Sequence record: SRR20825010_3322
Direction: 5' to 3' (one strand)
Length of the DNA stretch: 46,669 nucleotides
Below are positions 8,046 to 35,549 of this stretch, one piece after another; positions within the stretch are counted from its first letter, which is position 1; each line of letters begins with the position of its first letter. Made by a program: the position numbers and the translations under genes. The notes beneath the pieces are model-generated. The model saw only the letters and a program-made list of their open reading frames with translations. It was not told where the DNA came from and did not search any database.

Positions 8046-8212
8046 TCAGTTGGGGAATTTCGCTCGAAAGTAAAGATGCAGGGGATAAAAAATTGCGCAT
8101 ATGTTGGCATCCTAATTGCTTATACGATTGCAGATAATGTGGCGCCAAGCCTTCGGAGTGCGATATTTCTCCGTGTTTTTAGGTGGTTGGCCGACATACG
8201 AAAGGTTTGATC

Positions 8213-9049
8213 ATGATTGCCGCACGTTTAAAAATGGGTTCGTTTCTGGCACATGGGGCAAAACTTGCCTGTGCAGCGCTTGTATTGGGGGGCTGTCAGT
8301 CCAGCAACCTCTGGCAGGGTGAAGAAGTTTTGGTTGAGGCGCGCCAGACCACGCTGGAACGCAGTGTTGGCTCGGTGAATGAAAACCACCGGGAACTGAA
8401 AGACCGCTTTAATGCGCTCGAGCGCCTTTATGTGGATTTGGTTCGCGGTTTGCGCACCCAGAGCGACCAACTCAAGGCGATAGAGCAGCAACTTGCCAAT
8501 TTCCAGAAAGACCCTGAACTGGCGGCAAGCCTGACAAGGGTGAAAAACGACCTTGGCGCTATGCGCAAGGACATGAAGACACTTGAGAACAGAGTGTATT
8601 CCGTTGAGGTAATGGACCGTCAGGCGGCGGCTTTCACGCCAAAAACTGATACTGCGCCCACGGGCACATCCCAAACGGGTGCTGATCCGGAACCTGCGGC
8701 CAACGCTGGTGCCGCCGCAGCAACGCCGGTGGATAACCGCCCTGCGATGCGCAGCCAGACATTTTATGGTGCACATTTGGCGTCTTACCGGTCGCAGGAT
8801 CAGGTGGCATCCGGCTGGCGCAGTCTCTTTAATGCCTTCTCAAATCAGCTCCAGGGGCTTGAGCCTCGTGTTTACACACAGAGCCAGGAGGGTATTGGTA
8901 CGTTCCTTCGCCTTATTGTTGGCCCGATGGAGAACGAAGGGCAGGCAGCAGCCCTTTGTGACAGTATTCGTGCCACCGGAGGTGAACAATACTGCAGGGT
9001 ATCTGAATACCAAGGCGAACCGCTGCCTGAGCCAGCACCGGCAGAATAA
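8213..9049 (+). CDS. Lipoprotein with coiled coil and C-terminal SPOR domain
   Basis: Lipobox LGGC; heptad-rich middle; YGAHLASY..W..L..RLIVGP..A..LC..C SPOR-like C-terminus. Confidence 0.8.
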   Translation: MIAARLKMGSFLAHGAKLACAALVLGGCQSSNLWQGEEVLVEARQTTLERSVGSVNENHRELKDRFNALERLYVDLVRGLRTQSDQLKAIEQQLANFQKDPELAASLTRVKNDLGAMRKDMKTLENRVYSVEVMDRQAAAFTPKTDTAPTGTSQTGADPEPAANAGAAAATPVDNRPAMRSQTFYGAHLASYRSQDQVASGWRSLFNAFSNQLQGLEPRVYTQSQEGIGTFLRLIVGPMENEGQAAALCDSIRATGGEQYCRVSEYQGEPLPEPAPAE

Positions 9050-9066
9050 ACCTGACCAAAGTGTCA

Positions 9067-9095
9067 GAAAACAGGGCCTCCGGGCCCTTTTTTTG
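9067..9095 (+). terminator. Intrinsic terminator after the SPOR gene
   Basis: AGGGCCT-cc-GGGCCCT hairpin followed by T-tract. Confidence 0.8.
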
Positions 9096-9182
9096 TGTCT
9101 AATTGGCAAAAATTTAAATAAATAACAGCGGATGGGGAAAGCCCTCTTGACAGAGAGCGACAAATCTTGTCGGATGCTCCAA

Positions 9183-9340
9183 CCTTCGACACACTCAGTC
9201 GTAGATGATCAACTTGGGGAGGTGCGATCATCTGGGCGCCAGCAATGGCAGCCACTGAGCTACGAAGGCCGGGCATACCTGGGGGTTCGCTCGGATTAGG
9301 CGCGGTGCTACGACCCATATAGGTTGTTCGCCGCGCCTTT
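9183..9340 (+). ncRNA. Putative structured non-coding RNA (family not recognised)
   Basis: Nested helices CCUUCG/CGAAGG, CUCAGU/ACUGAG, UAGAUGAUC/GAUCAUCUG, GCCA-GCAA-UGGC, then CCGGGC/GCUCGG and AGGCGCGG/CCGCGCCU hairpins; TTGACA at 9147-9152; no credible ORF. Confidence 0.65.
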
Positions 9341-9423
9341 CGCTATCTCACCCTATCTCTCACATCCTTGTGTCAGCAATATGACAAAACATCGCAGGTG
9401 ATACCTGTGAGGTGGGCTTAACC

Positions 9424-9597
9424 TTAGAACGTGAGTTTGCGGCCAAAGGATGGCTTCACGTCAACGGCCCATGATGGCTTCCTGAGAAGAGTGCAAAGGC
9501 GTTTGAGCACAAGTGCCATGCCGTCCTGCATGGAGGCCATGCCAATCGCACCAATCATAATAAACATCATCAGAATGAAGATATGTGAAAAAGCCAT
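9424..9597 (-). CDS. 57-aa small membrane protein, putatively SOS-induced (not in ORF track)
   Basis: Manual translation MAFSHIFILMMFIMIGAIGMASMQDGMALVLKRLCTLLRKPSWAVDVKPSFGRKLTF*; RBS AGGAG 8 nt upstream; promoter and two LexA boxes upstream. Confidence 0.75.
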   Translation of the reverse strand: MAFSHIFILMMFIMIGAIGMASMQDGMALVLKRLCTLLRKPSWAVDVKPSFGRKLTF

Positions 9598-9610
9598 GTT
9601 TGCCGCTCCT

Positions 9611-9668
9611 GTTCCTTTTTTGTTCTTATAGGGGTGGTTGAGGTGCCGGTCAAGAACAAAAGTAGAAC
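9611..9668 (-). promoter_or_regulatory. Sigma70-type promoter flanked by two alphaproteobacterial LexA (SOS) boxes
   Basis: GTTC-ctttttt-GTTC (9611-9625) and GAAC-aaaagta-GAAC (9654-9668); minus-strand TTGACC (9653-9648)-N17-TATAAG (9630-9625). Confidence 0.85.
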
Positions 9669-9797
9669 ATATCGTATAAAGGTGGTTCTTCGAGGTGAGT
9701 AATTATATTGCGCTGAACTTCTGATCGGTGCTAAAGAGGAGGTAAGTGAGCGGGCATAATCCCGCGAATAAAAACAAAAATGAAAAAGAGATGAGTT

Positions 9798-11141
9798 ATG
9801 TCGCTAGACCCACGGGATCGCCCCGCAGGGGAGGCATCTGAGGGAAGTGGTCAAAACAGACCTGGCTCCAAGGAAAGTGCCTCACGCAGAAAGAGGAGAC
9901 GGCCGCGCCGCCGTGCCTCAAACCACAAGAGTGAGGTCCAAGGCACCACACCTTCGCAAACAGGCGCTTCCACCACAACAGAACAAGCTGTAGCCGATGC
10001 GGCTGTCAAGGGGCCATCACCCAGGCCCGCTCAACCGGGCGCGCGCAAGCCCAATGCTGAGCGTCAAGGCGCAGGGCCCGGCAACCGGCCGCCATTGCCG
10101 CCGGTGCGCACGGTGTATAGTGCGATCGATCTTGGCACCAATAATTGCCGGCTGCTGATCGCTCGCCCCACCCGTGGTGGTTTCCGCGTGATCGATGCCT
10201 TTTCCCGCATCGTTCGTCTGGGTGAGGGGGTATCCAACGGCAATATGCTATCGGACGCTGCGATGGACCGTACCATTGAAGCGCTGAAAGTTTGCGCAGA
10301 GAAAATCGCCCGCCGCAACGTGACCTGCATGCGCCACGTGGCGACAGAAGCCTGCCGCGTGGCCGATAACTCCGCAGAGTTTATTGCGCGCGTGAAGCGC
10401 GAAACCGGCTTGAACCTCGATGTTATCTCGGCGGGTGAAGAAGCACGCCTTGCGGTCATGGGCTGCCAGTCGCTTATCGCGCCCGGCAACAGGCATGCGC
10501 TCGTATTTGATATTGGTGGCGGTAGCACAGAGCTTATCTGGGTAAGGGTGCTGCCGGGCGGCCGCACAGAGATCAGCGGCTGGATGTCTATTCCCTGGGG
10601 GGTGGTCAACCTGTCGGAGCACTATGGTATCTCGGGCACCACGGTGCCACGGGACGAATATAATAAGATGGTCAATATTGTTGTGGATCATCTGCAAGCA
10701 TTTGAAGACGCTCACAGCGTCTCGGCCGTTGTCAAGAAGCGCCAGACCCAGTTTCTGGGCACGTCAGGTACTGTTACAACACTCGCGAGCCTGCACCTCA
10801 ATCTGCCGCGCTATATCCGCGAGAAGGTTGATGGTGCCTGGATGAAATCCAAAGATATTCATGCACTATCGCGTAGCGTGGCTGAGATGACCCATGAGGA
10901 ACGTTCTGCCCAGCCGTGTATCGGGCCTGAGCGCGCAGATCTCGTGGTAGCCGGGTGTGCCATTCTGGAGGCTATTTTGGGCATGTGGAATGTGCCGAGC
11001 CTGCGCGTCGCAGACCGGGGCATACGCGAAGGCATTTTGCGTGGTATGATGCAGTTAGAGAATATGCCGGTACGACAAGGACCGCGCCGCCGCGGGAGAA
11101 ACCCCGGGGGCAGACCAAATAAGGTGAAGACGCATGGCTAA
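9798..11141 (+). CDS. Ppx/GppA family phosphatase with long basic disordered N-terminus
   Basis: AIDLGTNNCRLL, VATEACR, EEARLA, DIGGGSTE, GTSGTVT, RADLVVAG, GIREG. Confidence 0.93.
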   Translation: MSLDPRDRPAGEASEGSGQNRPGSKESASRRKRRRPRRRASNHKSEVQGTTPSQTGASTTTEQAVADAAVKGPSPRPAQPGARKPNAERQGAGPGNRPPLPPVRTVYSAIDLGTNNCRLLIARPTRGGFRVIDAFSRIVRLGEGVSNGNMLSDAAMDRTIEALKVCAEKIARRNVTCMRHVATEACRVADNSAEFIARVKRETGLNLDVISAGEEARLAVMGCQSLIAPGNRHALVFDIGGGSTELIWVRVLPGGRTEISGWMSIPWGVVNLSEHYGISGTTVPRDEYNKMVNIVVDHLQAFEDAHSVSAVVKKRQTQFLGTSGTVTTLASLHLNLPRYIREKVDGAWMKSKDIHALSRSVAEMTHEERSAQPCIGPERADLVVAGCAILEAILGMWNVPSLRVADRGIREGILRGMMQLENMPVRQGPRRRGRNPGGRPNKVKTHG

Positions 11142-32470: not shown

Positions 32471-32485
32471 GAACAAATAAAGAAC
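32471..32485. promoter_or_regulatory. LexA (SOS) box in the uvrA/GFA divergent promoter
   Basis: GAAC-aaataaa-GAAC; back-to-back TTGACA hexamers at 32444-32439 (-) and 32450-32455 (+). Confidence 0.85.
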
Positions 32486-34883: not shown

Positions 34884-34898
34884 GAACATAACATGAAC
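34884..34898. promoter_or_regulatory. LexA (SOS) box upstream of ssb
   Basis: GAAC-ataacat-GAAC. Confidence 0.8.
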
Positions 34899-35024: not shown

Positions 35025-35549
35025 ATGGCCGGTAGTGTGAATAAGGTAATTTTGGTGGGCAACCTTGGGCGTGACCCTGAGGTACGGACGATGAACGATG
35101 GCTCACCCGTGGTGAATTTATCGCTTGCGACGTCTGAGACATGGCGGGACCGCGCATCAGGCGAACGCCGCGAGCGGACCGAATGGCACCGCGTGGTTAT
35201 CTTCAACGAAAACCTGGCGAAAGTTGCACAGCAGTACCTGAAAAAAGGTTCGACCATTTACATTGAAGGCCAGCTTCAAACTCGTAAGTGGACAGACCAA
35301 CAAGGTGTTGAGAAATACTCCACCGAAGTTGTTCTGCAGCGGTTCCGTGGTGAGCTGACGATGCTTGGTGGTCGCGGCGATAGCCAGGGCGGCGGTTTTG
35401 GTGAAAGCAGCCAGTCCAGCTATGGCGGTGATTTTGGCGGCAGCTCGCAAGGTGGTAGCCAGGGCGGCAATCAAGGTGGCGGCCAAGGCGGAAATCAGGG
35501 CGGCGGCTTTGGTGGCGGCGGTGATCTGGACGATGAAATTCCGTTCTGA
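35025..35549 (+). CDS. ssb: Single-stranded DNA-binding protein
   Basis: [26 protein letters not shown], Gly-rich linker, DDEIPF tail. Confidence 0.99.

Follow-up and report, generated by a model that had tools for sequence, protein, structure and literature searches.

SOS-induced division inhibitors and membrane toxins are small, fast-evolving and unrelated between lineages, and for this reason most bacterial groups are without an assigned protein of either kind. Among the closest described systems are SidA (29 amino acids, aa) and DidA (71 aa) of Caulobacter, small single-pass inhibitors that act on FtsW/I/N, DidA by way of FtsN, a SPOR-domain protein (PMC4211646). The sidA gene is an early one with a strong promoter, and a lexA deletion leads to filamentation because of sidA (PMC12700426). 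Here we analysed a stretch of 46,669 nucleotides (nt) from sequence record SRR20825010_3322, called the window throughout, and describe in it a gene for a predicted 57-aa membrane protein of the marine alphaproteobacterial family Kordiimonadaceae, whose promoter carries two predicted LexA sites and which converges with the gene of a structured small RNA (sRNA).

LexA-controlled type I toxins are represented in E. coli by TisB/IstR-1 and DinQ/AgrB, in which the toxins have 27–29 aa, the leaders are long and structured, and the RNAs pair with the 5′ part of the toxin mRNA. The convergent type I pairs BsrG/SR4 and TxpA/RatA of Bacillus subtilis reside in prophage-like elements of a Gram-positive bacterium and, to our knowledge, are not under LexA control. 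In YneA of B. subtilis and SosA of Staphylococcus aureus the C-terminal part lies outside the cell. Both of these are SOS-induced inhibitors, and YneA is reported to bind FtsW (PMC13396833, 10.1101/364299).

The Kordiimonadaceae protein resembles SidA, DidA or TisB in outline, without a Pfam or NCBIfam match that would make it a member of any of those families. As with TisB and DinQ, a LexA-box-associated gene for what is predicted to be a small hydrophobic inner-membrane peptide is adjoined by a small RNA gene; here, however, the predicted leader is short, and the sRNA gene is convergent at the 3′ side and was not detected in loci of some genera that have the protein. The convergence of a membrane peptide gene with an sRNA gene, with a potential 3′ overlap, is the arrangement of BsrG/SR4 and TxpA/RatA. 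YneA and SosA likewise have a transmembrane helix at the N terminus and a further part behind it, but here the tail is predicted from its charge to be cytoplasmic and not extracytoplasmic, and there is neither a LysM domain nor a sequence relation. DidA, with 71 aa, a single transmembrane helix, short flanks and induction by damage, is nearer in size and build than SidA; it differs in being SOS-independent, activated by DriD and not repressed by LexA, and no sequence relation to it emerged. SidA has in common with our protein the alphaproteobacterial origin, the GTTC-N7-GTTC LexA motif at the promoter, the build (here predicted) of a small single-pass inner-membrane protein and the lack of a wider family. 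Set apart by its description, SidA has 29 aa with little beyond the helix, as against 57 aa (54–74 aa in relatives) and a selected basic tail, and in Caulobacter one box is the rule, at about 97% of the SOS promoters, where this promoter has two (PMC12700426).

Results

A small gene kept at one place in Kordiimonadaceae

The open reading frame (ORF) of 57 aa and its predicted expression signals lie within 250 nt of the window:

9424–9597, minus strand: 57-aa ORF, gene of a predicted single-pass membrane protein; ATG at 9597, stop codon 9426–9424 included
9654–9668, minus strand: LexA box 1, GTTC-N7-GTTC GTTCTACTTTTGTTC, a predicted operator that directly abuts the −35 hexamer
9648–9653, minus strand: −35 hexamer TTGACC, with a 17-nt spacer to the −10 element
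9625–9630, minus strand: TATAAG, the probable −10 element
9611–9625, plus strand: LexA box 2, GTTCCTTTTTTGTTC on the plus strand, reading GAAC-N7-GAAC on the gene strand
9606–9610, minus strand: Shine-Dalgarno sequence AGGAG, with 8 nt between AGGAG and ATG

A first-pass annotation of the window had reported this ORF at 9597–9424 together with AGGAG, TTGACC-N17-TATAAG and two perfect boxes, and its coordinates and description were right. It had also made its reading depend on a frame conserved in relatives, on a ratio of nonsynonymous to synonymous substitution (dN/dS) below 1 and on boxes kept together with the ORF, all of which we found. With the 57-aa product as query, tblastn returned a short open frame from 21 of 24 genomes of the same genus, and in 22 loci, window included, an ORF of 54–74 aa lies between a SPOR-domain gene and the divergent ppx-rlmE genes. 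A protein profile built from these 22 syntenic sequences matched 28 of the 31 other Kordiimonas genomes. The three without a match are 76%, 83% and 100% complete; in the last of them (G007, 100 contigs) the small ORF, the sRNA and ppx are all without a match, and the whole ORF-sRNA-ppx region may be unassembled or lost.

In agreement with the earlier description of the gene as lineage-specific, 37 of 44 Kordiimonadaceae genomes gave a profile match, as did only 1 of 156 genomes in other families of the order, and that weakly (E 0.009); a sample of 300 genomes from the whole class gave none. The family count is a lower bound, because in one complete genome missed by the profile the syntenic position does contain the twin boxes, together with an ORF of 60 aa that has a single helix. 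Among 1.84 billion protein representatives the profile found 55 matches at E up to 0.001, of 54–79 aa except one of 125 aa, and 53 of the 55 begin at profile position 1–2. A word-index protein search reached only two close relatives, and the profile search was needed for more distant ones. The gene had been called unannotated, which did not hold: the exact 57-aa sequence is already present in NCBI, ENA and UniRef sources, where the named homologues are termed 'hypothetical protein'.

In close pairs dN/dS (Nei-Gojobori) was 0.05–0.24, with 0.23 in the closest pair and 0.05–0.08 in a triplet of close species, and was alike in helix and tail; in distant pairs dS was saturated and the tail poorly alignable. 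The entropy by codon position was 1.16, 0.66 and 1.67. The gene is single-copy and syntenic, not patchy. Judged from its conservation, the 57-aa ORF is a real gene of Kordiimonadaceae. An antisense ORF of 66 aa (9431–9631, plus strand) was rejected as a gene, its frame being open in only 9 of the 22 loci.

A promoter with two predicted LexA operators

GTTC-N7-GTTC occurs five times in the window against 1.19 expected, and the count of five was reached in 1 of 100 shuffles; against an enrichment, the bare motif has 95 matches genome-wide versus 157 for a reversed control pattern. Copies with A/T-rich spacers outside long ORFs precede recognisable SOS genes. In the window they stand upstream of uvrA (32471–32485) and ssb (34884–34898), as the first-pass annotation had noticed, and in this genome the motif also precedes lexA, Mg-chelatase/comM-like, SRAP, radical-SAM and glyoxalase-family genes as well as an ImuA-like gene (ImuA match at E 4e-11, below the curated cut-off). 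The recA gene at ~162.1 kb, just outside the window, has two boxes upstream with one mismatch each, 32 nt apart, and lexA has one perfect box downstream of TTGACA. Because it precedes canonical SOS genes, GTTC-N7-GTTC is confirmed as a motif in use in this genome, and its earlier identification as the alphaproteobacterial LexA consensus agrees with the motif published for this class (PMC12700426). A fifth match in the window (35331–35345, plus strand) has a G+C-rich spacer, lies within the ssb coding region and is probably due to chance.

Perfect boxes 15–80 base pairs (bp) apart form a single pair in the 4.18 Mb genome, that at the 57-aa ORF, where an arithmetic estimate gives ~0.17 such pairs by chance. 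The boxes are placed as LexA operators would be, one abutting the −35 hexamer and the other overlapping the −10 element: box 2 and TATAAG have G9625 in common, and the likely start site is also under box 2. Measured from centre to centre, the boxes are separated by 43 bp, or roughly four turns of the DNA helix, and they are oppositely oriented.

This layout is kept. Both boxes are perfect in 21 of the 22 loci, the remaining locus having one mismatch in box 1 and a perfect box 2, and they are likewise kept in further Kordiimonas records. TTGAC directly follows box 1 in 21 of 22 loci (TTTAC in L031); the promoter spacer of 17–18 nt is unconserved, the TA.A element overlapping box 2 is kept in relatives, and GGAG or GGGA stands at their Shine-Dalgarno place. 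Across the 22 loci the box starts are 40–43 nt apart and 10–16 nt lie between the end of box 2 and the start codon (one locus has an overlapping extra box match, with the same spacing as its sister loci), while anything from 286 to 506 nt, a difference of 220 nt, separates box 1 from the conserved core of Ppx. The spacing is fixed to the ORF and variable to ppx, which indicates that both boxes belong to the small gene; this tells against the possibility, raised in the first-pass annotation, that they regulate only ppx-rlmE.

We scanned the genomes of 185,579 species for the pattern of a box, TTGAC, 20–24 nt and an inverted box, and obtained 45 loci, mostly from Kordiimonas or relatives with the small ORF. 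The same layout precedes ImuA-like genes in Hyphomicrobiaceae and others (L041, L051, L056, L058, L064, L079 and L081; NCBIfam matches at E 1e-10 to 1e-13, below cut-off, on a basis that excludes L041) and a PA0069-family radical-SAM gene (L067). It seems, therefore, that the twin-box design is a recurrent lock on particular SOS genes.

A predicted single-helix protein with a basic tail

An AlphaFold model (22-row alignment) shows one helix at residues 2–38 followed by a disordered end, with a mean predicted local distance difference test score (pLDDT) of 81 and 31 residues at 90 or above. The best 19-residue hydrophobic window has a mean Kyte-Doolittle value of 1.7–2.5, and the interior of the helix is without charged residues. 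No lysine or arginine precedes the helix in any of the 22 sequences, and the tail has a mean net charge of +4.3; by the positive-inside rule, this charge distribution suggests that the N end lies outside and the tail in the cytoplasm. The product would thus be a small inner-membrane protein with an N-terminal transmembrane helix and a basic cytoplasmic tail of ~30 residues. F12, G16, G19 and Q24 do not vary among the 22 sequences and H5 and A21 hardly do, and these residues probably form a small-residue face typical of helix-helix packing.

That the protein could not be assigned to a known family had been stated before, and the searches bear it out: Pfam and NCBIfam hold no family for it, and the ESM Atlas returned only unnamed clusters at 0.79–0.81, within the range reached by shuffled proteins. 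A match to Na+/H+ antiporter subunit G (E 5e-4, in 3 of 22 members) was rejected as helix-to-helix noise.

A convergent structured sRNA

The ORF and the SPOR gene are separated by 375 bases, within which lies a strongly conserved element of the plus strand. The features of this region are:

9182–9345, plus strand: conserved structured sRNA gene of ~165 nt, convergent with the ORF and its candidate partner
9147–9175, plus strand: predicted sRNA promoter TTGACA-N17-TCGGAT, with an invariant −35 and a nearly invariant −10 region in 21 loci
9395–9407, minus strand: weak terminator-like hairpin directly 3′ of the ORF stop, with a 5-bp stem and the tail CGATGTTTTG
9073–9088, both strands: two-way terminator-like hairpin 3′ of the SPOR gene, from a terminator scan

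At the 3′ end of the sRNA, near 9345, a G+C-rich terminator hairpin is followed by a short run of T. Its RNAalifold fold has 31 pairs, 12 of them changed on both sides, with 98.3% of cells pairing; the covariation score was reached by 0 of 500 shuffles, and slid controls fell to 37–49% paired. The first hairpin has six covarying pairs and an invariant G-rich loop, CUUGGGGAGGUG. Rfam gave no match for the sRNA, neither in the window, where hits at E up to 1 were considered, nor in six related loci, and the region contains no transfer RNA or transfer-messenger RNA. ORFs at 9064–9318 (minus strand) and 9132–9299 (plus strand) were rejected, as they overlie the sRNA, which is conserved by base pairs and not by codons.

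A covariance model of the sRNA matched 28 of 37 other family genomes and 0 of 113 genomes of other families. All 29 matches in the 151 genomes are on the contig of the ORF, run towards it and lie no more than a few hundred bases away, and none occurs without the ORF. On the evidence of these searches the sRNA is new and found only in Kordiimonadaceae, a small novelty separate from that of the protein gene. Conversely, the ORF occurs without a detectable sRNA, even with filters off, in loci of three other genera of the family, so the sRNA looks like a later addition.

Contigs from two of four sequencing runs cover the region. That of run X2 spans 9176–9338. That of run X1, a run which is not on record as RNA and whose kind is guessed to be RNA, spans 9182–9787 on the plus strand; it begins at the sRNA start, passes the sRNA terminator and crosses the entire ORF in antisense. 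Position 9182, which is 7 nt past the proposed −10, adjoins an adaptor-like loose end, and eight A's follow 9787, in an A-rich genomic stretch just before ppx. We take the loose end to be a template-switch oligonucleotide, on which reading the X1 contig would be complementary DNA (cDNA) of a plus-strand RNA primed in the A-rich stretch. If this is right, some transcripts from the sRNA promoter pass the terminator and run antisense over the ORF, and such read-through RNA may also feed ppx-rlmE. On the other strand, the hairpin at 9395–9407 is not kept in the loci of relatives, and 9073–9088 is the next terminator-like site for a minus-strand transcript that passes it.

Discussion

The promoter of the small gene is gripped by two predicted LexA sites, and DNA damage therefore probably switches the gene on. 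In the mechanism that we envisage, two LexA dimers would shut an intrinsically good promoter, one at the −35 hexamer and one over the −10 element and the start site, their binding at both boxes probably being aided by the same-face spacing. The gene would be silent until damage leads to cleavage of LexA, would then be transcribed with a short unstructured leader (~23 nt as predicted) and could be translated immediately. The protein would most likely enter the membrane and restrain the late division proteins FtsW/FtsI/FtsN until repair is finished, as SidA does in Caulobacter.

An SOS division inhibitor that works like SidA is our first choice, one that we hold tentatively and give somewhat less than an even chance, the target and the division block being guesses by analogy. 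We prefer it because the gene is single-copy, syntenic and vertically inherited, because the whole protein and not the helix alone is under selection, because the genome is without a SulA match (profile PF03846 found none in the complete genome, while the E. coli control was positive), and because small single-pass blockers of FtsW/I/N have an alphaproteobacterial precedent. The convergent neighbour also fits, as it encodes a SPOR-domain protein. The SPOR domain binds septal peptidoglycan.

Several observations count against this choice. The SPOR neighbour and the missing SulA are weak, indirect hints. Neither the Pfam nor the NCBIfam profiles reveal a similarity to known inhibitors, SidA having been compared by description, and the protein is twice as long as SidA, with a selected cytoplasmic tail that SidA lacks. 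The conserved convergent sRNA is no less compatible with a toxin-antitoxin arrangement than with a checkpoint, and the sole transcript-like record over the locus is from the plus strand, opposite to the ORF. Finally, a simple sigma-70 scan gave no promoter in 9000–10000. The scan missed TTGACC-N17-TATAAG because its rule demands T at the last −10 position, where TATAAG has G, so that the promoter is our reading, backed by the conserved TTGAC and TA.A and not by a tool call.

The main rival owes its place to the structured sRNA gene convergent with the ORF. In a type I-like toxin-antitoxin or dormancy module, which we consider rather unlikely, the peptide would oligomerise in the membrane and lower the proton-motive force like TisB and DinQ, and the convergent sRNA or read-through would restrain the mRNA through a 3′ overlap, as in BsrG/SR4 and TxpA/RatA. 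A small, hydrophobic protein under LexA boxes would suit such a module, as would an sRNA with its own conserved promoter and covariation-backed fold, found in every case convergent with the ORF and never elsewhere, and the cDNA-like X1 contig lying antisense over the whole ORF; a weak further point is the rarity of an ORF-strand terminator before the sRNA (present in 2 of the 14 loci that a strict hairpin-plus-T-run search could evaluate, its anchor failing in 7 of 21). It is harder to reconcile with this module that three genera have the ORF and no detectable sRNA, and that the complementarity of the sRNA to the translation start region of the mRNA does not rise above chance (Z −2.5 to +1.5, centred on 0, in 21 species). 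The predicted leader, short and unstructured, is unlike that of tisB or dinQ, charged residues are lacking within the helix, purifying selection acts on the tail, and the gene is single-copy and syntenic, not patchy; in some species a second plus-strand terminator, recognised by eye, would halt read-through before the ORF. A less probable combination, which we regard as quite unlikely, is a two-part SOS switch made of the doubly LexA-locked membrane protein and a constitutive structured sRNA that are mutually antisense. As long as cells are unstressed, read-through transcripts of the sRNA gene would cover the protein gene in antisense and serve as a second lock, and after damage the released promoter would make both the protein and an antisense RNA that silences the sRNA gene.

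The promoter could also serve an SOS-induced membrane protein of another role, whose tail would act as a tether or modulator for envelope, transport or polyphosphate/(p)ppGpp metabolism. The tail is selected among close relatives and fast-changing between clades, a distant lineage whose Ppx is only 52% identical still has the gene paired divergently with ppx-rlmE, and alphaproteobacterial LexA regulons include many genes of unknown role (PMC13384398). However, position is the sole tie to Ppx, the distance from the boxes to ppx is not fixed, and Emcibacter loci with a similar ORF and layout have no close Ppx homologue within 8 kb. We regard such a role as improbable. Very improbable is an incidental peptide, with the boxes serving the divergent ppx-rlmE or the promoter driving an SOS-induced antisense RNA into the sRNA gene. 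The intergenic region is indeed common to the ORF and ppx, and a minus-strand transcript past the weak hairpin would run antisense through the sRNA to 9073–9088, but the ORF is under clear coding constraint, box 2 is followed at a constant interval by the ribosome-binding site and the start codon, the interval to ppx differs by 220 nt between loci, and the ORF persists where the sRNA is not found. Besides whatever the protein itself does, the transcript might still act on the sRNA in antisense.

A literature search on Kordiimonas with LexA, and on alphaproteobacterial type I toxin-antitoxin systems with LexA, gave nothing on this gene in the main text of the papers. With ~55 sequence clusters, clear invariant residues and a conserved twin-operator promoter, the locus provides an entire family of marine alphaproteobacteria with a well-defined candidate protein family, and the twin-box layout can be used to search for more SOS peptides that have so far stayed hidden. 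If the protein blocks division as we favour, it would be a second alphaproteobacterial handle on small helices that switch off FtsW/FtsI/FtsN; if it is a toxin with an sRNA, LexA-controlled type I systems would extend beyond enterobacteria. A two-part switch, if true, would be a chromosomal, vertically inherited hybrid of checkpoint and type I system, not described before, and alphaproteobacteria other than Caulobacter would have their first defined SOS membrane effector.

Neighbouring genes and other twin-box loci

The SPOR gene (8183–9049, plus strand) encodes 288 aa, with a lipoprotein-like signal in which LVLGG precedes a Cys, a central coiled coil and a SPOR domain at the C terminus, and its place beside the small ORF is kept across the family. 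On the other side, Ppx has an N-terminal extension (9798–10115, plus strand) of ~110 residues rich in Arg, Pro and Ser, with the Pfam Ppx/GppA match starting from residue 121; the extension is kept in close relatives only, and the true start codon is uncertain.

Small single-helix ORFs of 34–73 aa stand behind a twin-box promoter at six further loci, L045, L076 and L082 (Emcibacter and a metagenome-assembled genome), L083, L039 and L070. Those of L039 and L070, both from metagenome-assembled genomes, are at the syntenic ppx site and have very different sequences. The Emcibacter ORFs have in common an early His before the helix, and near them one 27% match to Ppx was seen (L076, E 9e-15), with no close homologue within 8 kb. 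L083 is from Robiginitomaculum, and the ORF of 34 aa, which belongs to a relative of Caulobacter, may be SidA-like.

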